64,000 bases of DNA from a bacterium. Its GTDB lineage: Bacteria; Actinomycetota; Acidimicrobiia; Spongiisociales; Spongiisociaceae. The position numbers and the translations under genes were made by a program. The stretch lies in NCBI GenBank assembly GCA_028821235.1, contig JAPPGV010000089.1, positions 93,839 to 157,838 on the forward strand, given 5' to 3'. The notes under the pieces were generated by a model, which was not told the origin of the DNA, did not search any database, and was given only the letters and a program-made list of their open reading frames with translations. Positions 1,897-19,312 of this stretch are shown one piece after another (position 1 is the first letter of the stretch; each line of letters begins with the position of its first letter).

Positions 1897-2012
1897 CTGT
1901 CCCGTCCTTTCGGCTCGTGCCTCCCGGGCCTGCACCGGTGAAGCGCTGACGTCTCTCCCGGACCTGCCGATTTGGTCCGTCATGGCGAGCTTACTTCGGG
2001 CTTGGGAACGGC

Positions 2013-2092
2013 GTCTTGAGGAGGGTGCCGCAAAGACGAGAGGGGGTTGGCCCGCGATCCCGCGACCTGGGTTTCGTTGCCGGTGCCGGGCC
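2013..2092 (+). promoter_or_regulatory. conserved ~80-nt upstream element, copy A (candidate cis-regulatory RNA or operator) in the leader of the amidohydrolase-2 gene
   Basis: cttgaggagggtgccgcaaagacgagagggggttggcccgcgatcccgcgacctgggtttcgttgccggtgccgggcc is closely similar to 10393-10472. Both copies keep a GGCCCG...CGGGCC inverted repeat. It lies 58 nt before the ATG at 2151 and is followed by the CTCGGG...CCCGAG hairpin and the GGAGG SD. Confidence 0.5.
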
Positions 2093-2150
2093 TGGCGGAC
2101 GGTGCTCGGGTTAGGGTATCGACGTTGCCCGAGTCCAGAGGAGGGCGCCA

Positions 2151-3152: not shown

Positions 3153-3243
3153 TGGGGGAGTTCGGTAACGGCAGACCGTAGCCTTACCCGGGTCCGGTCG
3201 TCGTCCGGATGAGCACGCGGCATTCCAACCGCAGGAGCCCCGC

Positions 3244-4023: not shown

Positions 4024-4083
4024 GAGCGCCCTCCCTGACCTCCGATAAGCTGAGATCGGATCTCAACCAGCGAGGAAACCCTA

Positions 4084-5526: not shown

Positions 5527-5571
5527 CTCTCCGATCACGGGTAGCCGGTTCTCACCGGCCACCGTTTCTGG

Positions 5572-6540
5572 TCACCGTCCGCTGTTTCGGTGGTGGTCTA
5601 GGCGGTACACGCGGCGGGTGTTCTCTCCGAGTATTTGGTCGATTTCGTGTTGGGGGATGCGGTAGCCCAGTTGTTTGGCCCATTCGGGGAGCATGCGGAA
5701 TTGGTCTACCCATTGTTTGAGGGTGAGGGAGACTTCTATGCCGGCCATGTCGGATCCGAACAGGATCCGGTCTGCTCCGATGCGGTCTCTCATCCATACG
5801 ATCTTGCGGGTTAGTTCGTCGGGGGAGATCCAGTGTTGCCATAGGCTCATGTCGAGGTGGATGTTGGTCTTGTAGATGGCGACGGAGATGGCTTCGTGTG
5901 CCCAGGTTTCGTAGCGGGCGGAGTGGCCGAGGATGAAGCGTAGGTCGGGGAAGTCGGCGGCGGCGGAGTCGACGTAGATGGGGTGTCCGAACTTGGATTT
6001 GTGCCGGCCTGCGGAGTGTCCTTGGTGGAGGAGTACGGGTAGGTCTCGTTCTAGGAGGAACCGGTAGAGGGGGTAGACGAGGTCTTCGTCGTCGGGGTAG
6101 AAGCCGTTGGTGGGGTATAGCTTGAGGCCTATGGCGCCCCATTCGTCTACTGCTGTGGTGAGGATGTCGAGGGCGTCGGGGCGGCGGGGGTCTACTCCGC
6201 AGAAGGTGTAGAGGCGTCCGGGGTGTCTTTTGGTGGCTTCGGCGCAGAGCCGGTTCTTTTCCGCGATGGGGATGACGCCTTCTTCGCCCAGGCCGACTCC
6301 GTGGTCCATGGGCATCATCACCGACGCGTCTACCCCGGCCTCGTCCATACGAGCCACCGCCTTATCGCCGTTGCCGTCGGCAGCCACACTCCAAGCCTCC
6401 GCGAAGTACTCGGGGTCGGACTTGGGCGGGTCGTACCAGCGCACCTGCCTCGCCCAGGATTCGGCCATGCCCGAGGACACGTTCATCGGGTTCCAGTCGT
6501 GTTCCATGATGTGCATGTGGCAATCCACCACCAAGGGCAT
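5572..6540 (-). CDS. amidohydrolase-2 family (PF04909-like metal-dependent hydrolase), second copy
   Basis: Real start is the internal Met MPLVVDCHMHIMEH (ATG at 6538-6540), 2 nt after the TGA of the upstream gene. The track's 565-aa ORF carries a spurious Arg/Pro-rich N-terminal extension. Motifs HQGHS and FGSDMAG. Confidence 0.8.
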   Translation of the reverse strand: MPLVVDCHMHIMEHDWNPMNVSSGMAESWARQVRWYDPPKSDPEYFAEAWSVAADGNGDKAVARMDEAGVDASVMMPMDHGVGLGEEGVIPIAEKNRLCAEATKRHPGRLYTFCGVDPRRPDALDILTTAVDEWGAIGLKLYPTNGFYPDDEDLVYPLYRFLLERDLPVLLHQGHSAGRHKSKFGHPIYVDSAAADFPDLRFILGHSARYETWAHEAISVAIYKTNIHLDMSLWQHWISPDELTRKIVWMRDRIGADRILFGSDMAGIEVSLTLKQWVDQFRMLPEWAKQLGYRIPQHEIDQILGENTRRVYRLDHHRNSGR

Positions 6541-6542
6541 GG

Positions 6543-8099
6543 TCACTCCCCTCTTGAACCGTTCCCCGTAAGGGGCGGATGCTTGGCGTTGTAAACGGCC
6601 GCCGGCTCCAACGGTGTCCGGGCCCACGGGCGGTAGAAGTCGAGGACGTAGGGGTCTACCTCCCATCCCAGGCGCACCGACTCGGGGTCGGGGTCGCTTC
6701 CCATGATGCGCGCAGCCGCTTCGGTGACGTAGTCGTGCACACGGCTGTGCGGAATGCGGGTGAACTCGCCGTCGTCGAACACGATCTCTCCGGCGACCAT
6801 GACCGAGGCCACGTCGGCGGCGGAGGCTCGGTCGAGGATCACGTCCAGGGGCGGGGTGGATGCGTAGCGTTCCTCCGGCCAGAACAAGCGGTCCCGGCTC
6901 AATACGACCAGGTCGGCTTCCTTGCCGACGCCGAGCGAGCCGAGTTCGGACTCGAAGCGGATCGCCCGGGCGCCGTTCTCCGCAGCGGCTCGCAGCACGG
7001 CCTCCGAATCGAGGCGCCCGACCTCGAGCAATCCCGGCGTTCTCTGCAGATAGGCGGCGAGGCGGAGTTCTTGGAGGAAGTCGCCGGAGTCGGAGAAGGA
7101 GATGTTGTCGGTGCCGAAGCACACCCGCCCGCCGCGGTCCATGATGTCCCTCACCCGGGCTATCCCGGTGCTGAGCCGGAGGTTGGAGCCGGGATTGTTG
7201 ACGGCCACCGCTCCCGTGTCGGCGAGTATCGAGATGTCCTCGTCGGTCGCCCAGACGAAATGGGAACACGACACGTCGGGCCCCAGCACCCCGAGATCCG
7301 CCAGGCGGCGCATAGCCGTCTTGCCGTCGCTCTCCAGCGCGTACATCATCTCGGAGCGGGTCTCGAGCACGTGCGTCATGATCCCCGTTCCGAACTCATC
7401 GGCGAGGCGCCGGTTCCGCACGTAGAGTTCGTCCGAGCACGCCGGCGTCCAGTCGGGGGCGAGCAGGACCCGGATCCGGCCCTCCCGGTGATCCCAGCGG
7501 GAGACCAGGTCCCGGTAGGTGGCGAACACCTCGCCGATCGGCCATGCGTAACCCATCGCCGAGGCGCGCACCCGAGCAGCCAGATCCTCGGGAAGCATGG
7601 CGAGGAACGACTCGTCGTCGGCATGGACCAGGGTGTTGCGGTCCCTGGTCACCACGCCGAGGGCCACCCGGACTCCGAGGTCCCGGTAGGCCGCCAGGAT
7701 CGCGTCGTACCCGAAGTTGGGCAGACCCGACCGGCCGTAGTTGAGGTCGACGAACCCGGTCTGGCCACCTCGCACATCGTTCATGACGTTGGCCAGTACC
7801 GCGTGGTATAGGTCTTCCTCGGTAACGGGGGTCCACATGCCATGCAAGTGGACGTTGGCCCGCTCGAAGATGTACTGGGCCATGCCCCTGCTCAGGGCTG
7901 AACCCGAGTGGTAGTGACCGTTGATGAATCCCGGAAGGACGGTATGGCGGCGCGATCCGACCCGCCGGTCGAACGGACCGAGGCCCTCCAGCTCGCGCCT
8001 CTTTCCGATCCGGGAGACGGTCCGATCCTCGACGACGAGCGCGCCGTCCCGGATATACCCCGGGGAAGCATCGCCGAGGACGACGAGGGGATCTCCCAT
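6543..8099 (-). CDS. metal-dependent amidohydrolase family protein (about 518 aa); paralog of 298-1896
   Basis: Start taken at MGDPLVVLGDASPGYIRDGALVVED (ATG 8097-8099), which aligns with MSRYLIVGNPVVTLADEAFITDGALIVEG of the paralog. GFINGHYHSGSAL HxH motif. The upstream 322 codons of the track ORF are low-complexity. Confidence 0.85.
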   Translation of the reverse strand: MGDPLVVLGDASPGYIRDGALVVEDRTVSRIGKRRELEGLGPFDRRVGSRRHTVLPGFINGHYHSGSALSRGMAQYIFERANVHLHGMWTPVTEEDLYHAVLANVMNDVRGGQTGFVDLNYGRSGLPNFGYDAILAAYRDLGVRVALGVVTRDRNTLVHADDESFLAMLPEDLAARVRASAMGYAWPIGEVFATYRDLVSRWDHREGRIRVLLAPDWTPACSDELYVRNRRLADEFGTGIMTHVLETRSEMMYALESDGKTAMRRLADLGVLGPDVSCSHFVWATDEDISILADTGAVAVNNPGSNLRLSTGIARVRDIMDRGGRVCFGTDNISFSDSGDFLQELRLAAYLQRTPGLLEVGRLDSEAVLRAAAENGARAIRFESELGSLGVGKEADLVVLSRDRLFWPEERYASTPPLDVILDRASAADVASVMVAGEIVFDDGEFTRIPHSRVHDYVTEAAARIMGSDPDPESVRLGWEVDPYVLDFYRPWARTPLEPAAVYNAKHPPLTGNGSRGE

Positions 8100-8171
8100 T
8101 ACCAGCGTCCGGCTCACCGTGGTCCTCTCACCCTGGTCCTCCTTGGGTGACCTGACCATAATGCCACCGGA

Positions 8172-9320
8172 GTGAGGTTGCTGGAACACGAGTCCAAGGC
8201 CCGCCTGGCCAGGGCCGGGGTCAGGGTTCCGCGGGGTGCCGTCGCCACCACACCGGAACAGGCTGGGTCTGCCGCGCGGGCTCTGGACGGCGAGGTCTTC
8301 GTCAAGGCGTTGGTCCCGGCGAACCGGCGGTCCAAGAACAATGGCGTGATAGGCCCCATCGGACGGGACGCCGCGGCGCGAGCGGCGCATGAGTTGCTCG
8401 GTTCCCGGATCCTGGGCCATCGGTGCCGGTCGGTCTACGTGGAGGAGGCTGTCGCCGTGGCCGGAGAGCTCTATACCGCCTTCTCGTGGGGTCCTCGCGG
8501 TCCCCGGGTCACCGCATCCGGCGCAGGAGGTGTTGACATCGAGAGCTCGGGCGATGCGATGGTTCACCTTGACCTCGAGGGGTTGGCAGAACTGCCCCAA
8601 GACGGGGCGGAGCGTCTCTGGCGGCGGGCGCTGGGCGACGCCCGGGTCCCACCTGCGCTGGTCGAGCTGACCGTGTCGGCAGCCGGCGTCTTCTTCGACG
8701 ATGCGCTGCTGGTGGAACTGAACCCGCTGGCCAGGTCGGCCGACGGGTTGTTCATCGCAGTCGGAGCGCTGATCGAGATGGACGGCAACGCCCTCTTCAG
8801 GCATCCGGAACTCCGATGGCGTCCCGACGGGTTCAGCGAGCGGGAGGCCGTCGTGGCAGAGGCCGATCGCCGGCTTCCGGGCGCCTCCGTACGTTACGTG
8901 GAACTCGACGGTGATACGGGGCTGCTGGTGGGCGGGGGCGGCGCCGGGCTCTACCAGCACGATCTGCTGGTCCAAGCGGGTATGCGACCGGCCAACCACA
9001 GCGACCTGGGCGCCGGGGTATCGGCCGAGAAGCTGGACGTGCTGATCGAGGCCGTGCTCGGCCACCCCAACCTCTCGCGTCTGCTGGTCAGCTTCAACAT
9101 CCTCCAGCTGGCCCCTTGCGACCTCATCATGGAGAGACTCCTGATGGGGCTGGACCGGCTCGGAGACCGAGACGGTCCGATCCCGGTGGTGGTCCGGCTA
9201 GAGGGGCTCAACGCCGATCGGGCCCGGAGGCTGGCGGCAGGACGGGCCGGTTTGCGGTACCTTCCGTCCGGAGCGAGTCTGGGAGAGGCCGTGGACACCT
9301 TGGTCAGGATCAGCCGGTGA
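8172..9320 (+). CDS. succinyl-CoA synthetase beta-subunit-like protein (SucC-like ATP-grasp subunit of an ADP-forming acid--CoA ligase)
   Basis: GTG start; N-terminal MRLLEHESKARLARAGVRVPRG aligns with the SucC start MNLHEYQAK.LL..YG.PVP. Length of 382 aa is typical for SucC. Divergently oriented to the amidohydrolase gene. Substrate is unknown. Confidence 0.8.
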   Translation: MRLLEHESKARLARAGVRVPRGAVATTPEQAGSAARALDGEVFVKALVPANRRSKNNGVIGPIGRDAAARAAHELLGSRILGHRCRSVYVEEAVAVAGELYTAFSWGPRGPRVTASGAGGVDIESSGDAMVHLDLEGLAELPQDGAERLWRRALGDARVPPALVELTVSAAGVFFDDALLVELNPLARSADGLFIAVGALIEMDGNALFRHPELRWRPDGFSEREAVVAEADRRLPGASVRYVELDGDTGLLVGGGGAGLYQHDLLVQAGMRPANHSDLGAGVSAEKLDVLIEAVLGHPNLSRLLVSFNILQLAPCDLIMERLLMGLDRLGDRDGPIPVVVRLEGLNADRARRLAAGRAGLRYLPSGASLGEAVDTLVRISR

Positions 9321-9535
9321 TCGTCCGCGCCGACATGGCGTCGATCGTCTGGCGGATCACCGTCGCCGAAGGCGAACGGGTGCGAGCCGGGCAGGAGCTC
9401 CTCATCCTCGAGTCGATGAAGATGGAGATGCCCGTCATTGCTCCGGTGGCCGGGACAGTGGTAAACATCCCGGTGGCGGAGGGAGACGTGATCGAGGCCG
9501 GTGACGCGCTGGTGCGGATCGAACGCAGCCGGTGA
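9317..9535 (+). CDS. stand-alone biotin carboxyl carrier protein (biotinyl domain, about 72 aa)
   Basis: GTG start overlapping the sucC-like stop (GTGA). Contains LILESMKMEMPVIAPVAGTV with the MKM biotinylation motif of biotin_lipoyl domains. The alternative ATG at 9335 is in frame. 4-nt overlap with the downstream gene. Confidence 0.7.
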   Translation: MIVRADMASIVWRITVAEGERVRAGQELLILESMKMEMPVIAPVAGTVVNIPVAEGDVIEAGDALVRIERSR

Positions 9536-10419
9536 GCATCCTGGTCGACGAGCGGACCCGGATCCTGGTCCAGGGCATAACCGGCTCCGTGGGCCGGGTG
9601 GATACCCGGCTTTGCCTCGACTACGGATCCCGGATCGTGGCCGGCGTAACGCCCGGACGGGGTGGTGAATCGGTCTCGGGGGTGCCGGTCTTCGATACGG
9701 TGGCCGAAGCAGTCGAGCGGACCGGGGCCACCGCGGCCGTTCAATACGTGCCGGCCCGCCACGCAGCGGACGCGGTGGTCGAGGCGGCCGCCTCCGGCCT
9801 GTCGCCGATCGTGGCCATTGCCGAGAACCTGCCCCGGCAGGATGCCTGGCGGGCCGCCGTCGCCGCTCGGAACGCCGGTTCGGTCCTGATCGGGTTCAAT
9901 ACCAACGGCATCATCTCACCGGGAAGGACGAAGCTGGGGGGCATCGGCGGGCCGCGGCCCGACGACCTGTTCCGCCCCGGAACCGTGGGTGTCTGCTCCC
10001 GGTCGGGGGGAATGTCCGCCGAGATCGCGCGTTCGTTAGCCAGGGCCGGCAGCGGGGTCTCTACCTGCGTCTCGATGGGAGGGGAGTCGATCACCGGAAG
10101 AACCATGGCCGAGTACGCCCGCTGGTTCGAGGCGGACGAGGCCACCCGCAGCATCGTGGTCTTCGGCGAGCCGGGATCGGAGCATGAGGCCGAAATGGCC
10201 GCCGCCATGGAGCGCGGCGAGGTGACCAAACCGGTCGTGGCGATGATCGTGGGCCAGTTCCAGGACGCCTACCCGGCCGGATCCTCCTTCGGCCACCTAT
10301 CGGCGATGGTACGGCTCGATACCGACCGTGCGGTGGTTAAACGTGACATGCTGGCGGCCGCCGGAGCGCTGATCGCGGAGCGTGTCGAGGACATTCCCGA
10401 TCTCTTGGGAGGGTGCTGA
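9532..10419 (+). CDS. succinyl-CoA synthetase alpha-subunit-like protein (SucD-like CoA-binding/phosphohistidine subunit)
   Basis: GTG start overlapping the previous stop (GTGA). MSILVDERTRILVQGITGSVG...GVTPGRGG...PVF matches the SucD N-terminus MSILV.K.TKVIVQG.TG..G...GVTPGKGG almost motif for motif. CSRSG and MGG motifs are present. Confidence 0.85.
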   Translation: MSILVDERTRILVQGITGSVGRVDTRLCLDYGSRIVAGVTPGRGGESVSGVPVFDTVAEAVERTGATAAVQYVPARHAADAVVEAAASGLSPIVAIAENLPRQDAWRAAVAARNAGSVLIGFNTNGIISPGRTKLGGIGGPRPDDLFRPGTVGVCSRSGGMSAEIARSLARAGSGVSTCVSMGGESITGRTMAEYARWFEADEATRSIVVFGEPGSEHEAEMAAAMERGEVTKPVVAMIVGQFQDAYPAGSSFGHLSAMVRLDTDRAVVKRDMLAAAGALIAERVEDIPDLLGGC

Positions 10420-10472
10420 AAAAGACGGGGTTTGGTTGGCCCGCGATGCCCCTACCTGGGGTTTTGTTTCCG
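10393..10472 (+). promoter_or_regulatory. conserved ~80-nt upstream element, copy B, in the leader of the carboxyltransferase gene
   Basis: cttgggagggtgctgaaaaagacggggtttggttggcccgcgatgcccctacctggggttttgtttccggctctcgggcc. The same blocks as copy A (aaagacg, ggttggcccgcgat, acctggg, ttt.gtt.ccgg, cgggcc) are conserved. It lies 63 nt before the GTG at 10536 and is followed by the ACCCT-cgt-AGGGT hairpin and the GGAGG SD. Its 5' end overlaps the last codons of the sucD-like gene. Confidence 0.5.
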
Positions 10473-10535
10473 GCTCTCGGGCCAACGGGACATTCTTCAG
10501 TACCCTCGTAGGGTCATGAGCAGGATGGAGGCGAA

Positions 10536-12092
10536 GTGATCTGGGACCCCGAACTCGAGGAGATGGAGCGCCGGAAGGTGTATGCGCTCTCGATGGGCGG
10601 GGAGGAGGCCGTGGCCCGCCAGCACGACGCCGGTCGGCTCACCGCCAGGGAGAGGCTCAGCCTACTGCTCGACGAGGGTACCTGGCAGGAGATCGGGACC
10701 TTCACCGGTGCGGCCACCTACGACGCGGAGGGCCGGCTCGTGACCGTGAAACCGGCCAACACCATCATCGGCACCGGCCGGGTCCGCGGTCGCCGGGTGG
10801 CCGTCGAAGCCGACGACTACACGATCAGGGGAGGTTCGACGGAAGCGCAGATCTCCGAGAAGTGGGAGTTCATCAACCGGTACGCATTGGAGATGCGGAT
10901 GCCGATGATCCGTCTCGTGGAGAATGTCGGCGGAAGTGTCCGCCTGCTCGAGAAGATGGGGCGGACCAAGATCCCCGGGTACCGCATGTGGCCCCTCGCC
11001 GGGATGCTCGGCTACGTACCTGTGGTGGCCCTGGTGCTAGGTCCGTCAGCAGGTCTCGGTCCTATGAAGGCCGCCAGCAGCCACTTCTCGGTGATGGTCC
11101 GCGGCACCAGCCAGGTGTTCGCCGCCGGCCCTCCGGTGGCGCGGGTCGCCCTGGGCCGGGACATCGATAAGGAGGAACTGGGAGGCGCCCACATCCACAC
11201 CGAGGAGAGCGGAGTCATCGATAACGCGACCGACTCGGAGGAGGAGGCGATCTGCCAGGCAAAGCGGTTCCTGTCGTACCTGCCGCAGAGTGTCTTCGAG
11301 TTGCCCCCCCGCCAACCCGGCGACGACTCTCCCGACCGCGCCGAGGACGAGTTGGCCTCGATCATCCCGCGGAATCAGCGCCGGGTCTACGACTCGCGGA
11401 GGCTCCTCTCGCTGGTCTTCGACCGCGGCACGCTCTTCGAGATCGCTCCCGCCTACGGACCTTCATCCATCACGATGCTGGCCCGCCTCAACGGTTATCC
11501 GGTCGGCGTGATCGCCAACGATCCCTACCGGTTCGGGGGCGGTCTGACCCGCGCCGCTGCAGAGAAGGTCGAGACTTTCGTGGATCTCTGTGACACCTTC
11601 CACGTTCCGATCGTGAACTTCGTGGACCAGCCCGGCACCGTGATCGGGCTGGAAGCCGAGCGCGAAGGGGCAGTGCGAGGGACCATCCGCCTCATCTCCG
11701 CCATCGAGCAGTCGCGGGTTCCGTGGTGCGGCATGATCGTGCGAAGGCTCTTCGGTCTGGCGGGCACCAGCTACGGTCGGCTGCAGGGCTTGAACCTTCA
11801 CTACGCCTGGCCGTCTGCCCGGTGGGGTTCCATCCCGATCCAGGGCGGGGTACGAGCCGCTTTCCGCCGGGAACTCGACGCCCTGCCACCAGACGAAGCG
11901 GCGGAAAGGCTTGCCCGGCTGGAGGAGCAATACGACGGGCTGTCGTCGCCGTTCCGGACGGCAGAGGCTTTTGGAGTGCCGGAGATCATCGACCCCCGCC
12001 GGACCAGGCCCATCCTGTGCCAATGGATCGAGGACGCCTATGCCGTGCTACCCGAGCAACTGGGGCCGACAGCCCGTACCATGCGCAGGTAG
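10536..12092 (+). CDS. acyl-CoA carboxyltransferase (PccB/AccD/12S transcarboxylase-like CT subunit)
   Basis: GTG start with GGAGG SD 5 nt upstream. N-terminal GGEEAVARQHDAGRLTARERLSLLLDEG is the classic propionyl-CoA carboxylase beta / methylmalonyl-CoA carboxyltransferase signature. 518 aa covers both CT halves. Confidence 0.9.
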   Translation: MIWDPELEEMERRKVYALSMGGEEAVARQHDAGRLTARERLSLLLDEGTWQEIGTFTGAATYDAEGRLVTVKPANTIIGTGRVRGRRVAVEADDYTIRGGSTEAQISEKWEFINRYALEMRMPMIRLVENVGGSVRLLEKMGRTKIPGYRMWPLAGMLGYVPVVALVLGPSAGLGPMKAASSHFSVMVRGTSQVFAAGPPVARVALGRDIDKEELGGAHIHTEESGVIDNATDSEEEAICQAKRFLSYLPQSVFELPPRQPGDDSPDRAEDELASIIPRNQRRVYDSRRLLSLVFDRGTLFEIAPAYGPSSITMLARLNGYPVGVIANDPYRFGGGLTRAAAEKVETFVDLCDTFHVPIVNFVDQPGTVIGLEAEREGAVRGTIRLISAIEQSRVPWCGMIVRRLFGLAGTSYGRLQGLNLHYAWPSARWGSIPIQGGVRAAFRRELDALPPDEAAERLARLEEQYDGLSSPFRTAEAFGVPEIIDPRRTRPILCQWIEDAYAVLPEQLGPTARTMRR

Positions 12093-12179: not shown

Positions 12180-13529
12180 GTGGCTGATCGGATCATCATC
12201 GAGAACGCTGCCATCGTGACGATGAACGAGGAGGACGATGTCATCTTCGACGGATCGATGGTCATCGAGGGCAACCGGTTAGTCGCCGTCGGAGGATCCG
12301 AGGCGGCGTCCGGATACGACCGCGCCACCGCGAAGGTCATCGACGCCGGCGGCAAAGCGGCGCTGCCGGGATTCGTCGACCTCCACTACCACACCGCCAT
12401 CGGAAAGGGCTACTGCGACCATCTGGATCTGTGGGAGATCCTGCAGGGGTTCTGGTATCCCATGATCCGGGCGATCAATCCCGAAGAGGCCTACTGGGCG
12501 GCCATGGCCAGTTACAGCGAGTCTCTGAAGGCCGGTGTCACCACCGCCAACGACATGTTCCGCCAACTCCCGGCCCTGGCGCGGGCGGCAGTCGACAGCG
12601 GGATCCGGGTGGTTCTCTCCAACGACATAGCCGACCCGGAGCACGACCTCGACGTGATCGAGGACAACGAATCGGCCTACCACGAGTGCCACGGGATGGG
12701 CGACGGGCGGGTGGAGGTCTACGTGGGTATCGAGTGGCTACCCCTCGCGTCCGAGCAACTGCTGGTGGACTGCCGGGCGCTGGCCGACCAGCTTGGGACC
12801 GGTATCCACATCCACCTGAACGAGTCCCTCGGCGAGGTCGAGATCTCCAAGCAGGCGTTCGGCGGCCGCCGGCCCACCGAGGTGGCATACGACACCGGGA
12901 TCCTGGGACCGGATTGCGTGGCCGCCCACTGCGTGCACCTATCGGACCGGGAGATCGGGCTCATGAGCGAGACAGGAACCCATATCTCCCACAACCCCAC
13001 CTCCAATGCCAAGCTCGGCAACGGTATCGCCCGGCTGCCCGAGATGCTGGAGGCAGGCCTCAACGTCGGCCTGGGCCACGACTCGGCGGAGGGAACCAAC
13101 AGTTGCGACCTGTTCCAGGTGATGAAGTGGGCGTCGTTGGTTCATCGGGCCGAGCGGAAGGACGCGTCGATCCTGCAGGCGCCCGCCATCCTGGGCATGG
13201 CGACCAGGAACGGCGCGCGTGCCCTCGGCCACGAGACGGGCGAGTTGAGCGTAGGAAAGGTGGCGGACGTGATCCTGGTCAACCTGCAGAACCACCACTT
13301 CACCCCTTGGGTGCCGGGCAACAAGATCCACCTCATGTCACACCTGGTCTACAGCGCGGAGAGCGCCGCGGTCGACACGACCATCGTGGACGGCACGGTG
13401 GTGATGGAAGGGCGCGAGTTCCTGGTCTTCGACGAGGAGGAGGTGCTGGCGAAGGCGACCGAGAGCTTCTTCACCTGCATCGACCGGATGGAGGTCCCCG
13501 AGGAGTACGCCGGGCTTCTCGATCGCTAG
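12180..13529 (+). CDS. amidohydrolase, TRZ/ATZ family (guanine/MTA-deaminase, chlorohydrolase-like)
   Basis: GTG start with GAGGAG SD. MADRIIIENAAIVTMNEE, LPGFVDLHYHTAIG (HxH), HIHLNES, GHD and VADVILV motifs characteristic of TRZ/ATZ-family amidohydrolases (MtaD/SsnA/AtzA-like). Confidence 0.85.
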   Translation: MADRIIIENAAIVTMNEEDDVIFDGSMVIEGNRLVAVGGSEAASGYDRATAKVIDAGGKAALPGFVDLHYHTAIGKGYCDHLDLWEILQGFWYPMIRAINPEEAYWAAMASYSESLKAGVTTANDMFRQLPALARAAVDSGIRVVLSNDIADPEHDLDVIEDNESAYHECHGMGDGRVEVYVGIEWLPLASEQLLVDCRALADQLGTGIHIHLNESLGEVEISKQAFGGRRPTEVAYDTGILGPDCVAAHCVHLSDREIGLMSETGTHISHNPTSNAKLGNGIARLPEMLEAGLNVGLGHDSAEGTNSCDLFQVMKWASLVHRAERKDASILQAPAILGMATRNGARALGHETGELSVGKVADVILVNLQNHHFTPWVPGNKIHLMSHLVYSAESAAVDTTIVDGTVVMEGREFLVFDEEEVLAKATESFFTCIDRMEVPEEYAGLLDR

Positions 13530-13603: not shown

Positions 13604-14038
13604 CTAGCCATCTGGCGTTTCCACTAGTTCCACGAGCAGGCCGTCGAACTCGCGGGGGTGGACGAATGCGATCATCGTGCCCATCCCGCCGGGACGGGGC
13701 TGCTCGTCGATGAGTTGAACGCCCACGCTGGCGAGCCGCCGGAGGCATTCCCCGATGTCCTCCACCTCGAAGGCGATGTGGTGGAGAGCGGAGCCGCGCT
13801 TGTCTACGAACTTGCCTACGACCCCGGGGCCGGTCGCTTCGAGGGTCTGGACGAAGCCGTCCCCGACCGGGAGCATCCTCTCGGTGAATCCCGGTCCGTC
13901 CTCCTCGTGGCAGACCGGAACGCCCAGCAGCTCAGCGAACCGTTCGTGTGGCGCAGACGTCGGGGTGTGCGCGAAGGCGACATGGTGGATCCTGAGCAGC
14001 GGCGGCCACCACGGGGAAGGGGTCGGTTCCTGGACCAT
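13604..14038 (-). CDS. VOC/glyoxalase-family protein, methylmalonyl-CoA epimerase-like
   Basis: Start at internal Met MVQEPTPSPWWPPLLRIHHVAFAH (ATG 14036-14038), overlapping the stop of the upstream LLM gene (TAATG). HHVAF...LHHIAFEVEDI...VQLID motifs resemble methylmalonyl-CoA epimerase. The rest of the 447-aa track ORF is low-complexity. Confidence 0.65.
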   Translation of the reverse strand: MVQEPTPSPWWPPLLRIHHVAFAHTPTSAPHERFAELLGVPVCHEEDGPGFTERMLPVGDGFVQTLEATGPGVVGKFVDKRGSALHHIAFEVEDIGECLRRLASVGVQLIDEQPRPGGMGTMIAFVHPREFDGLLVELVETPDG

Positions 14039-15021: not shown

Positions 15022-15025
15022 ACGG

Positions 15026-16117
15026 TCATCCTGCCTTCCTGTCGTAGCGGAGGATGGTATCGGCCAGCGCGGCGAGTCCGGTTCCGATCGGTTCGGTCTC
15101 GATCCACTCCCCGGGTGTGTGCTCGCCGGATCCGAACGTGATGCCGATGGTGACCGCCGGAATGCCGGCCGCGTAGGCGGCGTTGGCGTCAGTGCTGGCT
15201 GCGACGTGCGCCGCATCGATCCCGACCGCGGCCAGGGCGGCGTCGGCGGCCGCCACCAGAGGATGCGTCTCCGGGATCGACCCGGCAGGCCGCTTGCCCA
15301 GTTCCTGGTAGGTCGCCGCCAGCTGTGACTCGGCCTCCACCACGCGGCGCGCCGAGGCATCGAGGTGGTCAAGGACCTCCGGGTCGGCGGAGCGGATGTC
15401 GACCCGCAGCGCTGCGCGGCGGGCACGAGCGTTGATCGACTCGCCCCCCTCGATGTGTCCTACGTTGAGCGAGCACCGGGCTCGGGACCTGGCGTCCGGC
15501 AGGAGATGTTCCAGGCCCACGATGATCCTCGCCAGGTCGTGGATGGCGCTGGGCGCGTCAGCAGCCTCCCAGGCGTGCCCTCCCGGACCCTCGAGTTCGA
15601 CCAGCCGGCGGACCGACCCGACACCCACCGTCGCCACCCGTCCGAGGTAGTTGCCCTCCAGCGCGATGAACGCGCTCATCCCGGCCGGAGGATGCTCCAC
15701 GAGGTGGAGTGCTCCGGCGAGGTTGCCTAGGCCCTCCTCGCCGGTGGTGGCCGCTATCCACACCGGCCGCGACAGGTCCTCCGGCAGGAGGCGGTCGAGC
15801 AGTGACAGGGCAGCGATGGCCACGGTGTTATCACCGACCCCGACACCATGGAGACGGCCGTCCCGCTGCTCGGTCCCATGGGGGATGTCCCGGCCGAAAA
15901 CCGTGTCGAGGTGGGCGGCCACGAACGTTGCCGGACCTTCTCCCGCACGGAGTCGGGCGACAACGTTTCCCGCCCGGTCGACCTGCGGCCGTAGCCCGTC
16001 CGCGCGCCACCACCGTTCTACGACGGTTACCCGGTCGGCCTCGTCAAGAGGAGGCCCGGGGACTGCTGCCAGCTCGACGGTCCGTGCGAGGATGACCGCG
16101 GCTGCATCTTCGGTCAT
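15026..16117 (-). CDS. M20 family metallopeptidase/amidohydrolase (ArgE/DapE/CPG2-like)
   Basis: 363 aa. HLDTV, GVGDN (His/Asp metal ligands) and EEG motifs of M20 peptidases. Stop overlaps the CoA-transferase start (ATGA). Confidence 0.8.
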   Translation of the reverse strand: MTEDAAAVILARTVELAAVPGPPLDEADRVTVVERWWRADGLRPQVDRAGNVVARLRAGEGPATFVAAHLDTVFGRDIPHGTEQRDGRLHGVGVGDNTVAIAALSLLDRLLPEDLSRPVWIAATTGEEGLGNLAGALHLVEHPPAGMSAFIALEGNYLGRVATVGVGSVRRLVELEGPGGHAWEAADAPSAIHDLARIIVGLEHLLPDARSRARCSLNVGHIEGGESINARARRAALRVDIRSADPEVLDHLDASARRVVEAESQLAATYQELGKRPAGSIPETHPLVAAADAALAAVGIDAAHVAASTDANAAYAAGIPAVTIGITFGSGEHTPGEWIETEPIGTGLAALADTILRYDRKAG

Positions 16118-17322
16118 CCCGGCTCGGCCGCCATCCCGCTTGCGAAGAGCGCATCGATGTAGGCGGGCTCCATACCGGCCTCGAGCAGTGACTCCCGCGT
16201 GTGCTGGCCGAGGAGGGGCGCAGGCCGGGGGATCGGCAAGGGTTCACGGTCGATCCGGAGCGGCAGGCCGATCGCAGGGTAGGGGCCCGCCGTGTCGTGC
16301 TCCAGCGTCTGTACCGAGCCGAGTGCCCGAGCCTGGGACCCGTCCAGTACCCCGCCGATGTCGTTGATACGGTCCGCCGGTACCTGAGCCTCTGCGAACA
16401 GGGTCAGCCACTCGGCTACGTCCTTCCGGGTGGTGATCGACTCGATCTCGGCGGTCAGTTCGTCACGAGCCGCCACCCGGGAGGCGTTGTCGGCGAAGCG
16501 AGGGTCTTCTACCAGGTGCGATGCGCCGAGCGTCTCGCAGAAGCGGCGCCAGATTGCCTCCGATCCGGCGCCGGCGGCCACGAAGTGCCCGTCGCGGGCG
16601 CGGAATGCTCCGTAAGGGGCGAAGGTGGGGGAGTGGCTGCCCAGCAGGCCGGGCACCTCGCCGTTCACGAGGTACGGCGTCGCTACCGTGGCCAGCGCGG
16701 CCAGCGAGAACTCGAGCAGCGAGGTGGAGACCTGGCGCCCGAGGCCGGTTCGTTCCCGCTCGGCCAGCGCGGCGAGCACCCCGACCACGCAGGCGAGCCC
16801 AGCTCCGATGTCGGTGACCGGGACGCCGATCTTGGCGGGCCCGGTCGCTTCATGCCCCGTGACGCTCATCAGGCCGCCGGAGGCCTGGAGAATGAGATCG
16901 AACCCACCCTTCCCGGCGTCGGGACCCACGTCTCCGAAGCCGGAGACCGACCCGTAGACCAGGGAGGGAAACCGGGCGTGGACCGCGGGGTAGTCGAGCC
17001 CGTACTTGGCGAGGCTTCCGGGCCGTCCGTTTTCCAGCAGGACATCCGCGGAGGCCAGGAGCCCATCCATCGCGGGGCGGGCATCCTCTGCTCGGAAGTC
17101 GAGAGCGACGCTCTTCTTGGCGCTGTTGAGGGTCATGAACAGCACCGATTGGTCCCCCACGCGCGCGGTTCCCTGGTTCCGGTAGGGGTCTCCACCGGCC
17201 GGGCCCTCGATCTTGAGAACCTCCGCGCCCAGGGTCGCCAGAATGAAGGAGGCATACGCTCCCGAGACGAACCTGGTCAGATCGACAACTCGGATGCCGT
17301 CCAGCATGCCGTTGCCGGTCAC
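16114..17322 (-). CDS. CoA-transferase family III protein (CaiB/BaiF/Frc-like)
   Basis: 402 aa. N-terminal MLDGIRVVDLTRFVSGAYASFILATLGAEV is the family III CoA-transferase signature. Start overlaps the stop of the mutase gene (ATGA). Confidence 0.85.
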   Translation of the reverse strand: MTGNGMLDGIRVVDLTRFVSGAYASFILATLGAEVLKIEGPAGGDPYRNQGTARVGDQSVLFMTLNSAKKSVALDFRAEDARPAMDGLLASADVLLENGRPGSLAKYGLDYPAVHARFPSLVYGSVSGFGDVGPDAGKGGFDLILQASGGLMSVTGHEATGPAKIGVPVTDIGAGLACVVGVLAALAERERTGLGRQVSTSLLEFSLAALATVATPYLVNGEVPGLLGSHSPTFAPYGAFRARDGHFVAAGAGSEAIWRRFCETLGASHLVEDPRFADNASRVAARDELTAEIESITTRKDVAEWLTLFAEAQVPADRINDIGGVLDGSQARALGSVQTLEHDTAGPYPAIGLPLRIDREPLPIPRPAPLLGQHTRESLLEAGMEPAYIDALFASGMAAEPG

Positions 17323-18911
17323 CAGGGACTCGGTTCCCGGAACTCTCCGTACTCGTTCCTCATCATGTCGCTCATCTCGCCGAGCGTCCCTCCGGCCCTC
17401 GCGCAGTCCATGATCGGGGGCATGACGTTGGTTCCGGTGCGCAAGGCCTCGCGCAGGGCCGCGAGCGTCGTCCTGGCTGCAGACTCGTCACGGGTGGCCC
17501 TTCTTCGTTCCGTGCGAGCGATCTGGAGTTCCCCGATCTTGGGATCCAGGGTGAACAGCCGCGGCTCGTGTTGTGCCAGCGCGTCGTCCACGTAGCGGTT
17601 CACGCCCACCCGGACCCTCGATCCGTCGGCGATCTCCCGCTCCGTCCGGTAGGCCTCAGCGGCTATCCACCGCTGGGGTGTACCCGACTCGAGCGCCGCG
17701 ACCGCTCCCCCCAGTTCCTCCACGGCGGCCATGATCTCGCGAGCCCGGCGTTCCACCTCGCTGGTGAGCCATTCGACGTAGTAGGAGCCCGCCAGGGCGT
17801 CGACCGTGTCGGCGACCCCGGACTCGTGTGCCACGATCTGCTGTGTCCTCAGGGAGAGCGTGACGGCCTCCTCGGTGGGAAGCTCGTAGGCCTCGTCATA
17901 GCCCATCACGTGTACGGACTGGGCGCCGCCCAGCACCGCGCCCAGGCACTGGATGGTCGAGCGGATGATGTTGTTGAGAGGCTGCGCGGCGGTGAGGGTG
18001 GTACCCGAGTTACCGGAGAAGAAGCGGAGCCGTGCGGAGCGGGGATCCTTGGCGCCGAAGCGGGTAGTGGCCGTGTCGTACCAGAGTCGCCGGGCCGCCC
18101 TCAGCTTGGCGACCTCCTCGAACAGGTTCATCGTGGTGGCGAAGTGGAAGGAGAACCGGGGCGCGAAGGAGTCGAAGGACAATCCTCGGGCCAGCAGTTC
18201 CTCCGCATATGCGATGGCGGATGACATGGTCAGGCCCAGTTCCTGGACGGCATTGCATCCGGCCTCTCTGGCGTGGTACCCGGTTATGGAGATCGGGTTG
18301 AACCGGGGCAGGTGTTCGGACGACCATTCCACGATGTCCGCCACGAGCCGCATCGATGCGGCCGGAGGGAAGATGAACGCCTTGCGGGCCAGGAACTCCT
18401 TGAGCAGGTCGTTCTGGAGCGTCCCCGAGAGGTCCGCGTAGGACGCGCCCTGGCGCTCGGCCGTCACCAGGTAGAACGCCAGGATGATCGGCGCCGTGGC
18501 ATTGATGGTGAAGTTCACCGAGAGCTTGTCGAGGGGCAGACCGTCGAACAACGCGGCCATGTCGTCGGCGGTATCGACAGCCACCCCCACCCGGCCGACT
18601 TCGGCGCGGGCCATGGGATGCGACGAGTCGTAGCCGAGCTGGGTGGGCAGGTCGAAGGCCACCGAGAGCGCCGTCTGGCCCTGTTCCAGCAGGAAGCGGA
18701 AGCGGTCGTTGGCGTCCTCGGCGCTGCCGTACCCTGCGAACTGGCGCATCGTCCACAGGCGCCCGCGGTACATCGTCTCGTACGGGCCCCTGGTGAAGGG
18801 AGGGTGGCCGGGGAGGCCCAGATGGTCCCCGGGCCGGAACCCCCCGACATCGTCCTGCGTGTATAGGGGAGCGACCGGGATGCCCGAGTCGGTACGGCGA
18901 TCGCCGGTCAT
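17319..18911 (-). CDS. acyl-CoA mutase large (substrate-binding) subunit, B12-domain-less (IcmA/HcmA/split-MCM type)
   Basis: 530 aa. PGHPPFTRGPYETMYRGRLWTMRQFAGYG..A...NDRF..LL..GQTALSVAFDLPTQLGYDSSH matches the methylmalonyl-CoA mutase catalytic domain. No C-terminal cobalamin-binding domain. ATGA overlap with the upstream small subunit. Confidence 0.85.
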   Translation of the reverse strand: MTGDRRTDSGIPVAPLYTQDDVGGFRPGDHLGLPGHPPFTRGPYETMYRGRLWTMRQFAGYGSAEDANDRFRFLLEQGQTALSVAFDLPTQLGYDSSHPMARAEVGRVGVAVDTADDMAALFDGLPLDKLSVNFTINATAPIILAFYLVTAERQGASYADLSGTLQNDLLKEFLARKAFIFPPAASMRLVADIVEWSSEHLPRFNPISITGYHAREAGCNAVQELGLTMSSAIAYAEELLARGLSFDSFAPRFSFHFATTMNLFEEVAKLRAARRLWYDTATTRFGAKDPRSARLRFFSGNSGTTLTAAQPLNNIIRSTIQCLGAVLGGAQSVHVMGYDEAYELPTEEAVTLSLRTQQIVAHESGVADTVDALAGSYYVEWLTSEVERRAREIMAAVEELGGAVAALESGTPQRWIAAEAYRTEREIADGSRVRVGVNRYVDDALAQHEPRLFTLDPKIGELQIARTERRRATRDESAARTTLAALREALRTGTNVMPPIMDCARAGGTLGEMSDMMRNEYGEFREPSPW

Positions 18912-19312
18912 GGCGCGACGCCGGCGGAGGCCTCACGGAACATCCCGTTCACCACCTCATCCAGGGGGGATCCGACCGGGAACACTCGGGAGATCCCGAT
19001 CCCCCGCAGCGCGTCGGCGTCCGCTTCGGGAATGGTCCCGCCGATGACGATCGGAACGCCAGCGATTCCGGCCTTGCCTCGTTCCTCCACCAGTTGGCGG
19101 CCCAGGGCGAGGTGGGCTCCGGACAGCACCGAAATGCCGATCACGTCGGCGCTCTCCTCGATCGCCGCGGTGATGATCTGCTCCGGTGATTGCCTGAGGC
19201 CGAGAAAGATCACTTCGGCGCCGGCATCCCGGAGGGCCATCGCGATGACCTTCACGCCGCGGTCGTGGCCGTCGAGACCGGGCTTGGCCAGGAGGATCCG
19301 GGGCCTTTTCAC
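18908..19312 (-). CDS. acyl-CoA mutase small subunit, cobalamin (B12)-binding domain
   Basis: GTG start (GGGGAG SD) overlapping the upstream stop (GTGA). 134 aa. LAKPGLDGHDRGVKVIAMALRDAGAEVIFLG...VIGISVLSGAHL matches the DxHxxG B12-binding motif of MCM/IcmB/HcmB. Confidence 0.8.
   Translation of the reverse strand: MKRPRILLAKPGLDGHDRGVKVIAMALRDAGAEVIFLGLRQSPEQIITAAIEESADVIGISVLSGAHLALGRQLVEERGKAGIAGVPIVIGGTIPEADADALRGIGISRVFPVGSPLDEVVNGMFREASAGVAP

Follow-up and report, generated by a model that had tools for sequence, protein, structure and literature searches.

We propose that the four-gene operon at positions 8172 to 12092 of the window (the whole 64-kb stretch of DNA analysed here) codes for an acid-CoA ligase along with the biotin carrier (BCCP) and carboxyltransferase (CT) of an uncharacterised biotin-dependent acyl-CoA carboxylase, whose biotin carboxylase (BC) is supplied from elsewhere in the genome; we put the probability of this reading at roughly 60%. 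Most likely, this is a carboxylase of the "ordinary" type with one subunit encoded elsewhere, and the operon probably feeds the epimerase and B12 mutase coded nearby. The original prediction had recognised the ligase, the CT, the biotinyl carrier and a methylmalonyl/succinyl-CoA node, all of which are borne out below; its suggestion of a system that lacks BC, or in which the SucC-like protein serves as BC, is not.

Domain architecture of the operon

An ORF check recovered the four plus-strand genes, coding in order for SucC-like, BCCP, SucD-like and CT proteins, packed as originally described, with GTGA stop/start overlaps between the SucC-like and BCCP genes (9317-9320) and between the BCCP and SucD-like genes (9532-9535). 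Pfam matched the anticipated ATP-grasp_2, Biotin_lipoyl, CoA_binding/Ligase_CoA and Carboxyl_trans domains in the respective proteins. The 116-nt spacer separating the SucD-like and CT genes (10420..10535, plus strand) contains a weak hairpin resembling a terminator (10448-10462) and also the ribosome-binding site of CT, a GGAGG that precedes the GTG start codon by 5 nt. This spacer has no Rfam match and represents a lineage-specific insertion of ~100 nt found only in the window and locus L005; in the remaining orthologues the SucD stop codon overlaps the CT start.

The SucC-like protein (8172..9320, plus strand; 382 aa) is the putative beta subunit of an NDP-forming acid-CoA ligase of the succinyl-CoA synthetase (SCS) type, combining an ATP-grasp domain (Pfam ATP-grasp_2, E 3e-20) with a C-terminal domain. 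Its best PDB match in phmmer searches is SCS beta (121 bits), and alignment to this match showed that it keeps equivalents of E197, N199 and D213, with "NILQLAPCD" standing in place of the SCS "FGGIVRCD" loop. The AF2 model (pLDDT 87.9) recovered SCS beta chains as top Foldseek matches (TM 0.73-0.80) and no BC among its structural matches; the predicted fold is accordingly that of SCS-beta and rules against a BC fold. The SucD-like alpha subunit (9532..10419, plus strand; 295 aa) unites a CoA-binding Rossmann domain with a phosphohistidine loop (Pfam CoA_binding, Succ_CoA_lig and Ligase_CoA), and its catalytic His aligns with that of its best PDB match, SCS alpha (220 bits), the loop reading FGHLSAM where SCS has MGHAGA. 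Both subunits score below the NCBIfam cut-offs for SucC (171 bits against 370) and SucD (255 bits against 336). Every clade nonetheless retains the pair's ATP-grasp residues, catalytic His and CoA-binding motifs, with QGxTGxxG, GVTPG(R/K)GG, SRSGGMSAE, FGEPG and FGHxxA kept throughout the SucD-like proteins. The pair constitutes a distinct subfamily of SCS-like ligases, and the reading of the heterodimer as a ligase, with its catalytic His and CoA site kept, holds.

The 72-aa BCCP (9317..9535, plus strand), whose gene overlaps the SucC-like stop with its GTG start and the SucD-like start with its own stop, proved to be a genuine biotinyl domain, as claimed: it matches Biotin_lipoyl (Pfam, E 1e-18), passes NF004547 "biotin/lipoyl-binding carrier protein" (80 bits against a cut-off of 75) and displays an ESMKME motif, with E(S/T)MKME invariant across 14 orthologues. 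The gene has a dN/dS of 0.24-0.32 and a GC3 of 0.85. Its closest relatives are stand-alone carriers of ~70 aa, and we found no fusion of BCCP to SucC or SucD among the nearest carrier relatives or the top 120 of the 570 SucC-like homologues obtained at E<=1e-10. Throughout the actinobacterial clade the gene lies between both ligase genes and is translationally coupled to them, a real and conserved architecture of which the literature searched holds no description.

The CT (10536..12092, plus strand; 518 aa) is a beta subunit that belongs with the PccB/MmdA/12S-like proteins, as had been anticipated, matching Carboxyl_trans (Pfam, E 3e-87) and, among PDB entries, best PccB, MmdA-like and 12S proteins (243-275 bits); against the NCBIfam mmdA model it attains 305 bits with a cut-off of 999. 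It shares the motifs "AGLGxxK" and "FGLAG" with proteobacterial CTs that adjoin SucCD-like genes. Its orthologues are exactly 518 aa long, 58-69% identical across phyla and show a dN/dS of 0.08-0.09, and the CT is a member of a distinct, highly conserved subfamily.

Conservation of the cassette and the location of the biotin carboxylase

The cassette occurs in ~14 distinct related loci (the window and 13 further loci of the actinobacterial type), mostly from sponge Acidimicrobiia MAGs, among which the SucC-like proteins are 55-94% identical. The four-gene order recurs in all nine Acidimicrobiia species representatives and in four further distinct loci, one of which has CT reduced to a remnant. 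With dN/dS values of 0.08-0.38 across the cassette, all four genes are under purifying selection and have been conserved together. At L073 the adjacent CT has decayed and BCCP still sits between the SucC-like and SucD-like genes; an intact CT lies 45 kb away in the same genome, pointing to rearrangement rather than independence. At L075 and L112 the cassette sits among housekeeping genes.

The claimed absence of BC, 5S and pump subunits from the window was upheld: a Pfam scan of ~54 coding-looking ORFs, with very small ORFs covered in part, found no BC, HMGL/PYC_OADA or OAD_beta domains, and a true BC used as a tblastn query retrieved nothing from the 64 kb at E<=1. Likewise, no BC was found within 10 kb at any distinct actinobacterial-type locus examined. 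However, the conclusion that had been drawn from this absence is not supported, since the proteobacterial orthologue clusters include canonical BC. Of 58 other species-representative loci, 21 have a gene for the 518-aa CT type (CT518) no more than 10 kb from the ligase, and at least three more have CT518 and the ligase on one contig (L065, Lautropia and Oceanibacterium hippocampi, in the last two of which CT518 falls just past the 10-kb flanks), so that the ligase and CT subfamilies co-occur outside Acidimicrobiia far beyond chance. In several Proteobacteria these clusters also hold a canonical BC and a 73-aa BCCP. For instance, Rhodoferax (L030/L035/L038) has an AMP-ligase and BCCP on one strand and BC-TctC-SucC-SucD-CT on the other; L018 has BC and BCCP alongside the ligase and CT; Lautropia (L014+L110) has CT2 | CT518 ... 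BCCP-BC-SDR-SucC-SucD; and the cultured O. hippocampi (L111) has BioYNM-GntR-BCCP-CT2 | CT518-BC, with CT and BC adjacent. Outside the actinobacteria, the closest relatives of the SucC-like protein and those of CT come largely from the same group of genomes, and four of these loci (L018, L065, Lautropia and O. hippocampi) have BC in the cluster. An AMP-forming ligase is also present in several clusters, making the role or direction of the SCS-like ligase ambiguous. Based on the proteobacterial co-clustering with BC, the conservation of the SucD-like motifs and the SCS-beta fold of the SucC-like model, the economical assumption is that BC lies elsewhere in the genome.

Genomic context

Directly downstream of CT on the same strand is a TRZ/ATZ-type amidohydrolase (12180..13529; 449 aa; Pfam Amidohydro_1), chlorohydrolase/deaminase-like in NCBIfam with scores under the cut-offs, which may be co-transcribed with the cassette. 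This position is filled in L001 and L076 too, and the amidohydrolase gives the cassette a catabolic context. The three further components named in the original prediction are all present. A VOC protein resembling methylmalonyl-CoA epimerase (MCE-like; 13604..14038, minus strand; 144 aa; Pfam Glyoxalase_4; TIGR03081 at 91 bits against a cut-off of 115) is coded by the gene that opens the adjacent operon on the minus strand. Beyond it on the same strand are a family III CoA-transferase (16114-17322; CoA_transf_3) and a split mutase, with an MCM-type large subunit (17319-18911; MM_CoA_mutase; NCBIfam acid_CoA_mut_N, 654 bits) and a B12-binding small subunit (18908-19312; B12-binding; acid_CoA_mut_C, 137 bits). 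A paralogous VOC gene directly precedes the SucC-like gene in L001, L007, L008, L013 and L109, and remnants of one do so in L072, L073, L075 and L112; in several lineages such MCE-like genes are translationally coupled upstream of the SucC-like gene. A family III CoA-transferase gene lies close to the cassette both in the window and at six of nine species-representative loci from Acidimicrobiia; the split mutase was seen beside it in the window and L072 only, most other loci ending before the mutase position. We infer a functional tie of these genes to the cassette, with the CoA-transferase and mutase (16114..19312) likely forming a downstream or upstream module for CoA-ester rearrangement, in line with an operon placed at a methylmalonyl/succinyl-CoA-type node.

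Predicted function and alternative explanations

The domain identities, the conservation of catalytic motifs, the synteny and the proteobacterial co-clustering with BC are the observations from which we infer that BC acts in trans and that the parts work together physically, as well as what class of substrate is used and which way flux runs. Together, the two SCS-like subunits would make up an ADP/NDP-forming ligase whose subfamily is uncharacterised and whose reaction is reversible: ATP bound by the ATP-grasp domain would give a phospho-His on the alpha subunit, then an acyl-phosphate and finally an acyl-CoA. In place of succinate, the acid used is probably a dicarboxylate that is short or substituted. 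BCCP and CT would shuttle CO2 from carboxybiotin to the alpha-carbon of a CoA ester or back; in Acidimicrobiia, the BC that charges BCCP would be coded elsewhere, either standing alone or as an alpha subunit of the AccA type. CT would produce or use up a 2-substituted malonyl-CoA, which the MCE-like epimerase and the B12 mutase could then connect to a succinyl-type CoA ester; this ester would be formed or cleaved by the ligase or by the CoA-transferase of family III. Against this reading, actinobacteria normally have BC fused to a BCCP domain of its own, and the charging of a separate 72-aa carrier in trans is therefore unproven; moreover, the wedging of BCCP between overlapping ligase genes may point to a closer link with the ligase than a BC in trans requires.

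The coupled position of BCCP would suit a scheme with the SCS-like ligase in the place of BC, where ATP, or a succinyl-type CoA thioester in the reverse direction, would yield the phospho-His and thence carboxyphosphate from bicarbonate, which would carboxylate BCCP for CT to pass on to an acyl-CoA. ATP-grasp enzymes all act through acyl-phosphates, BC is missing nearby, and in L073 BCCP retains its place beside a decayed CT. We nevertheless regard this as very unlikely, because the proteobacterial operons hold the same ligase subfamily together with a true BC, the CoA-binding and phosphohistidine motifs, of which the former are not needed for a BC role, are equally conserved with and without a nearby BC, the modelled fold is that of SCS-beta, fusions of BCCP to either ligase subunit are lacking in the set surveyed above, and L073 is explained by its distant intact CT.

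Unlikely, in our view, is a biotin system in Acidimicrobiia that works independently of an ATP-dependent BC, with CT and BCCP decarboxylating or transcarboxylating. The ligase, or the CoA-transferase, mutase and epimerase together, would supply a substituted malonyl-CoA (the latter three from a substituted succinate), from which CT would pass the carboxyl to biotin. The carboxyl would then either be handed by the same CT to another acyl-CoA, as a transcarboxylation between two CoA esters, or be lost. Consistent with this are the lack of BC within 10 kb at all actinobacterial-type loci examined and the behaviour of the cassette as a self-contained mobile unit in the unrelated contexts of L075 and L112. 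Against it, the window lacks both a 5S-type second carboxyltransferase and a membrane decarboxylase subunit, and carboxybiotin, as established for biotin enzymes, undergoes no useful decarboxylation on its own. Furthermore, the adjacency of the orthologous proteobacterial CT to BC favours the ATP-driven, carboxylating direction for this subfamily, and its identity and shared motifs across lineages do not indicate a change of mechanism. We give very little credence to a housekeeping SCS and a propionyl-CoA carboxylase beta subunit brought together by accident; SucC, SucD and PccB are the best named matches, and the nearby mutase and MCE-like genes could complete a methylmalonyl pathway, but the three proteins fall far below the equivalog/subfamily cut-offs, and subfamily-specific signatures take the place of the SCS substrate loop and GHAGA motif and of the two GG motifs of PccB. 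The genes also lie in a variable catabolic island of amidohydrolases, away from TCA-cycle genes, and the proteobacterial members adjoin genes for TRAP/TTT transporters, GntR regulators, MaoC, ECH and PrpD.

Comparison with known systems

A precedent for the reading without BC is offered by the indoleacetate pathway, in which IaaL, a family III transferase, and the mutase IaaGH precede a decarboxylating step; an MCE has also been found to accept benzylmalonyl-CoA (PMC8360864). S. coelicolor PccB has AGGAVYS (G182-G183) where our CT has "AGLGxxK" and FGGAYD (G419-A420-D422) where it has "FGLAG". As both "GG" oxyanion motifs of PccB thus read "GL" here, a point against the favoured reading, the chemistry or substrate of this CT may differ from that of textbook acyl-CoA carboxylases.

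Organization and conservation of the operon

The original prediction described an operon of four plus-strand genes, and this was borne out, with its coordinates, overlaps and gap, by ORF listing and direct reading of the DNA (window G+C ~67%). The first three genes code for a SucC-like protein of 382 aa with the Pfam ATP-grasp_2 domain (8172-9320, plus strand), a biotin carrier protein (BCCP) of 72 aa with the Biotin_lipoyl domain (E 1e-18; 9317-9535, plus strand) and the motif ESMKME, and a SucD-like protein of 295 aa combining the CoA_binding and Succ_CoA_lig/Ligase_CoA domains (9532-10419, plus strand); they are chained by GTGA stop/start overlaps at 9317-9320 and 9532-9535. The fourth gene, coding for a carboxyltransferase (CT) of 518 aa (Carboxyl_trans, E 3e-87; 10536-12092, plus strand), follows after a 116-nt gap, with a GGAGG 5 nt ahead of its GTG start. 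All the domains anticipated for the four proteins were thus assigned by Pfam. Neither a biotin carboxylase (BC), nor a 5S-type (HMGL/PYC_OADA) subunit, nor OAD_beta was detected by Pfam among the scanned ORFs of the window, and tblastn of the window with a bona fide BC returned nothing at E<=1, in keeping with the claim that the 64 kb holds none of these subunits. As the ORFs, the Pfam domains and the null result for BC all agree, we consider the underlying observation confirmed in every particular.

In most orthologues the start of the CT gene overlaps the stop of the SucD-like gene. The spacer in the window (10420-10535) is a ~100-nt lineage-specific insertion common only to the window and one related locus (L005). 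It contains a weak, GC-rich, terminator-like hairpin with a T-rich run behind it (10448-10471), matches no Rfam family, and could represent an internal attenuator or a small mobile or repeat element. No sigma-70-type promoter was found in or around the operon.

An identical copy of the SucC-like protein is encoded on a 189.5-kb NCBI MAG contig, and sequence searches recovered 570 homologues at E<=1e-10. Scanning the GTDB species representatives with this protein yielded 67 loci, the nine closest of which (70-93% identity) come from Acidimicrobiia MAGs, some named Candidatus Spongiisociaceae and several from sponge bins. The SucC-BCCP-SucD-CT order is kept in all nine, and contig look-ups showed that four more distant loci (L072, L075, L076 and L112; 55-64% identity) keep the cassette too, so synteny is conserved in related genomes. 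In two of these, L075 and L112, the surroundings differ and consist of housekeeping genes, so the cassette moves as a unit. Comparison with three relatives gave dN/dS values of 0.19-0.38 for the SucC-like protein, 0.24-0.32 for the BCCP, 0.12-0.15 for the SucD-like protein and 0.08-0.09 for the CT. A scan of JGI metagenomes contributed one further locus of the actinobacterial type (that is, an Acidimicrobiia-like cassette locus) together with numerous short proteobacterial loci, none showing a new gene arrangement, and a tblastn search of a plasmid collection with the SucC-like protein found as its sole match a malate-CoA ligase at 33% identity.

One locus departs from this order. In L073 SucC-BCCP-SucD is kept and the CT gene is a frameshifted remnant of its first ~99 codons (12276-12750), while 45 kb away on the same 1.63-Mb contig a second locus (L109, 6875-11557) has an intact CT, without ligase and BCCP genes, in an operon of the order Lactamase_B-AMP-ligase-VOC-CT-LLM-hydantoinase. 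With a CT stump at one site, an intact CT at the other and all parts present in the genome, we interpret the pair as a reciprocal split by rearrangement. We accordingly rejected L073 as proof of a BCCP-ligase trio independent of CT, given the CT remnant there and the intact copy 45 kb off.

The biotin carrier

The BCCP passes the NCBIfam model NF004547, 'biotin/lipoyl-binding carrier protein' (80 versus 75 bits), its E(S/T)MKME motif is invariant in 14 orthologues, and the GC3 of its ORF (0.85) is on par with that of real genes in the window. The early recognition of a biotinyl carrier with the lysine of an MKM motif therefore stands, with biotinylation itself predicted from the sequence. Only in the actinobacterial-type clade is the carrier gene wedged between those of the ligase. 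SucC-BCCP and BCCP-SucD fusions were absent both from the first 120 SucC-like homologues and from the carrier's 150 best relatives in a representative library of 1.84 billion proteins; the long relatives of the BCCP are OadA/PycB-type tails with tandem biotinyl domains.

A distinct subfamily of acid-CoA ligases

The SucC-like and SucD-like proteins score well below the cut-offs of the respective NCBIfam models (171 versus 370 bits for SucC and 255 versus 336 for SucD). In a sequence search of the PDB, succinyl-CoA synthetase (SCS) was nearest for both subunits (121 bits for beta and 220 for alpha), with CCS and ACLY being more remote relatives. An AlphaFold model of the SucC-like protein (pLDDT 87.9) matched SCS beta chains over both domains in Foldseek (TM 0.73-0.80), and no BC was among its best structural matches. 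By alignment, residues equivalent to Lys46, Glu197, Asn199 and Asp213 of the Escherichia coli SCS beta subunit (numbered as in the established SCS literature) are retained in the SucC-like subunit. The alpha subunit likewise keeps GxTGxxG, GVTPG(R/K)GG, a Glu97-like residue, SRSG, a Glu208-like residue and a catalytic His that aligns with His246-alpha of SCS. The signature loops of SCS (GHAGA and FGGIVRCD) are not kept, the window ligase reading FGHLSAM and NILQLAPCD at these positions. All homologues instead have in common the alpha signatures SRSGGMSAE, FGEPG and FGH(A/V/L)xAM, and, where SCS has FGGIVRCD, the beta signature NxLQ(L/M)A(P/R)CD.

Because these motifs are equally conserved in the Acidimicrobiia and the proteobacterial clades, we conclude from the sequences that the pair is likely to be a functional acid-CoA ligase of the NDP-forming kind, which belongs to a distinct subfamily and probably acts on an acid other than succinate itself. 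The claim of an SCS-type ligase is thus supported by the CoA-binding motifs, the catalytic His and the SCS-beta fold, but with placement in a subfamily of its own. The wider family adjoins genes for TRAP/TTT dicarboxylate transporters, GntR regulators, MaoC, ECH, PrpD and family III CoA-transferases, which fits C4-C6 di- or tricarboxylate metabolism. The subfamily, labeled automatically as a generic 'acetate--CoA ligase family protein', is without a characterized member.

A carboxyltransferase subfamily with altered oxyanion-hole motifs

The CT scores 305 bits against the NCBIfam mmdA model, whose cut-off is 999. Its best structural relatives, namely Streptomyces coelicolor PccB (~275 bits), an archaeal MmdA-like protein, other PCC beta chains and 12S, lie at 243-275 bits, and the CT is equidistant from all of them. 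Alignment shows that AGGAVYS of PccB (G182-G183) is replaced by AGLGPMK and FGGAYD (G419-A420-D422) by FGLAGT, such that both oxyanion-hole GG motifs become GL and D422 becomes T. The same AGLG../FGLAG signatures are found in CTs adjoining SucCD-like genes in Alpha- and Betaproteobacteria. Database searches showed that these proteins form a large subfamily, here termed CT518, whose members are almost always exactly 518 aa long, share 58-69% identity between phyla and are far better conserved than the ligase. It carries the generic automated label 'acyl-CoA carboxylase subunit beta' and is without a characterized member.

A paralogous second CT (CT2; 511 aa, 31% identity to CT518), with the degenerate oxyanion motifs FGTG and YGQAY, lies divergently beside CT518 in Lautropia (L110, 8290-9825, minus strand) and in Oceanibacterium hippocampi (L111, 8347-9882, minus strand); it also occurs at the edge of a betaproteobacterial locus (L020) and was not seen in the actinobacterial-type loci. 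The sequences suggest that CT518 and CT2 might form a heteromeric CT, with CT2 possibly as a non-catalytic partner.

Association with biotin carboxylase in Proteobacteria

BC genes were absent from the 10 kb on either side of the cassette in every actinobacterial-type locus examined, and no OAD_beta was found in the called genes of related loci. Of the 58 species-representative loci from outside Acidimicrobiia, 21 have CT518 within 10 kb of the ligase genes, against ~2% expected by our estimate for a random 20-kb stretch and a handful of CT genes per genome, and 6 have a canonical BC there. The proteobacterial genomes closest to the Acidimicrobiia in their ligase are largely those closest in their CT, and BC is part of the cluster at four of these loci (L018, L065, Lautropia and O. 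hippocampi). The arrangements that include a BC are independent of one another. In Rhodoferax (L030, L035 and L038) genes for an AMP-ligase and BCCP on one strand face BC-TctC-SucC-SucD-CT; L018 has SucC-SucD, CT, BCCP and BC; Lautropia combines CT2 and CT518, TRAP, Amidohydro_2, TRAP and BCCP-BC-SDR-SucC-SucD within ~22 kb; and the cultured O. hippocampi has BioY-BioN-BioM, GntR, and BCCP (73 aa) plus CT2 facing CT518-BC, with the ligase ~14 kb off and the full set spanning ~25 kb. Given the BC genes in these proteobacterial clusters, CT518 in its other hosts is, as judged from gene content, the predicted beta subunit of a complete BC/BCCP/CT enzyme, with the ligase acting alongside BC and not in its place. 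In O. hippocampi the genes of the ECF biotin transporter BioY-BioM-BioN (L111, 5417-7254) stand directly beside BCCP-CT2/CT518-BC, which fits a high biotin demand.

Genomic context and candidate pathways

Around the cassette (298-8117 and 12180-13529) the window codes for three TRZ/ATZ-type Amidohydro_1 and two Amidohydro_2 proteins, an amidase-signature enzyme and an SDR; the rest includes transporters and housekeeping genes. Related loci (L076, L108) add hydantoinase A/B, TenA-like proteins and a molybdopterin oxidoreductase. These surroundings resemble an island for the catabolism of cyclic amides or N-heterocycles in sponge symbionts. The homarine pathway (homABCDER) was rejected as a candidate, being without a biotin or CoA-ligase component. 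In sponge and marine Alphaproteobacteria (L023, L025-L027, L063), CT518 and SucC-SucD occur by a CoxG/CoxM/CoxL-type molybdenum hydroxylase together with DAO-type and FAD_binding_2-type flavoproteins, ECH and up to three PrpD/MmgE paralogues, hinting at a heterocycle or branched-dicarboxylate pathway using the same ligase/CT core.

A gene of the VOC superfamily resembling methylmalonyl-CoA epimerase (MCE) is translationally coupled upstream of the SucC-like gene in four loci (L001, L007, L008, L013), directly precedes the CT in L109, and persists as remnants in L072, L073, L075 and L112. A second MCE-like paralogue (TIGR03081, 91 versus 115 bits) belongs to a tightly packed eight-gene operon on the minus strand of the window (13604-21458), which codes, in order of transcription, for an M20 peptidase, a 319-aa M29/NicX-like protein, the B12-binding small subunit and the large subunit of a split methylmalonyl-CoA mutase (MCM)-type enzyme, a family III CoA-transferase, a second M20 peptidase, an F420-type LLM oxidoreductase and the MCE-like protein. 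The 319-aa protein has no significant Pfam match in the window, and its L072 orthologue matches PF26233 (NicX); L072 has an alike gene order beside its cassette. It is unusual to find peptidase/deacylase genes together with a CoA-ester mutase in one operon.

Pfam and NCBIfam matches thus corroborate the nearby MCE-like, split B12 mutase and CoA-transferase genes. By analogy, the epimerase, mutase and transferase genes support a node leading from a 2-substituted malonyl-CoA to a succinyl-type CoA. The earlier suggestion of a methylmalonyl/succinyl-CoA node holds in this general form. A comparable set is known from the indoleacetate pathway, where a family III CoA-transferase, a B12 mutase and MCE can act on substituted succinyl-CoA and benzylmalonyl-CoA (PMC8360864).

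Farther along (39906-43079), the window has genes for a histidine-kinase-like protein and a LuxR-type response regulator set between those of two PspC-domain proteins, which looks like a LiaFSR-like envelope-stress module unrelated to the cassette.

Functional interpretation

We propose, with a probability of roughly 0.6, that the operon combines an SCS-like acid-CoA ligase with the carrier and beta subunit of an uncharacterized biotin-dependent acyl-CoA carboxylase whose BC is encoded elsewhere. The ligase would form an acyl-CoA by NDP-forming chemistry, the BCCP would act as carrier and the CT as beta subunit, with BC acting from elsewhere in the genome. A use of CT and BCCP in a BC-independent decarboxylase or transcarboxylase would suit the free carrier and the BC-less locus, but is a doubtful alternative beside the proteobacterial orthologues that neighbor BC. 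That the genes are an ordinary housekeeping SCS and PCC is improbable: SCS and PccB are indeed among the nearest relatives, but both subfamilies have signatures of their own and the ligase falls below the equivalog cut-offs.

Least probable of all is the substitution of the ligase for BC that was entertained in the original prediction. The lack of a BC near the cassette in the sponge Acidimicrobiia would accord with such a self-sufficient, BC-less carboxylase, in which the phosphohistidine of the ligase, phosphorylated with ATP or by running the reaction backwards from a succinyl-type thioester, would give carboxyphosphate and thence CO2 for the BCCP encoded between the ligase genes, and the CT would carboxylate an acyl-CoA. 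Together with the epimerase and B12 mutase it could close an ATP-neutral cycle from propionyl-type to succinyl-type esters and, if true, would be a new way to charge biotin; but a canonical BC shares the cluster with the same ligase in Proteobacteria, where the two work alongside each other.

Returning to the favored reading of a carboxylase with its BC elsewhere, the chemistry is most likely conventional, and what is undescribed in the literature searched is the gene arrangement and both subfamilies. Neither the literature searched on SCS-like ligases with BCCP/CT, on new biotin carboxylases and on sponge Acidimicrobiia nor the GapMind gaps paper describes such a module, in agreement with the view that a BCCP between SCS-type subunits is a novel architecture. 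If correct, this reading adds an uncharacterized carboxylase that is widespread among sponge Acidimicrobiia as well as Proteobacteria from the sea, soil and groundwater, defined by the CT signature AGLG..K plus FGLAG (518 aa), a mini-BCCP and a dedicated SCS-like acid-CoA ligase subfamily. Identifying its substrate would close a gap in the picture of how symbionts break down N-heterocycles and dicarboxylates of host or algal origin, and would extend a well-studied family of enzymes by a new specificity class; O. hippocampi CECT 7691, a cultured host with the complete set, is experimentally approachable.

Comparison with known systems

The Aromatoleum iaa module resembles the window in its family III CoA-transferase (IaaL), split B12 mutase (IaaGH) and MCE-type epimerase (PMC8360864), and in the cyclic-amide/hydantoinase-type catabolic island that surrounds the cassette; it differs in its decarboxylating step on benzylmalonyl-CoA, where the acyl-CoA dehydrogenase IaaF, not a biotin enzyme, removes the malonyl-type CoA ester, and is without an SCS-like ligase or BCCP. 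The Propionibacterium transcarboxylase (12S/5S/1.3S) and the Na+-pumping decarboxylases of methylmalonyl-CoA (MmdABCDE) and glutaconyl-CoA (GcdABCD) share with the cassette a small free carrier, a 12S/MmdA-like CT and a locus without BC. Unlike the former, the scanned window ORFs hold no 5S subunit, and unlike the latter and Oad, no membrane beta subunit; unlike both, orthologous CTs stand beside BC in Proteobacteria. The Rv3221c/TB7.3-type carriers of NF004547 are comparable in size (~70 aa) and in having a single biotinyl domain, but the present carrier has fixed genomic partners, the ligase and CT; to our knowledge, the function of TB7.3 is not established.

With SucCD and its relatives (malate-CoA ligase MtkAB, citryl-CoA synthetase CcsAB and ATP-citrate lyase) the ligase shares two subunits from translationally coupled genes, a beta ATP-grasp and an alpha CoA-binding subunit, and equivalents of the catalytic His, Glu197-beta and Glu208-alpha. 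It differs in its signatures, in the BCCP gene inserted between the subunit genes, and in its genomic ties to CT and, in other clades, to MaoC, ECH, PrpD and dicarboxylate transporters.

Named actinobacterial acyl-CoA carboxylases include AccA/PccB/PccE of S. coelicolor and AccA3/AccD5/AccE5 and the long-chain AccD4-AccD5 complex of Mycobacterium tuberculosis. The cassette resembles them in its full-length PccB-type beta subunit and its MKM-bearing carrier, and the second CT of the proteobacterial versions recalls the heteromeric AccD4/AccD5. It is set apart by the lack of a nearby BC or epsilon subunit, by the GL motifs and the D422 to T change, by a carrier that is a free 72-aa protein and not a domain of an alpha subunit, and by the embedding of its genes in an SCS-like ligase operon.
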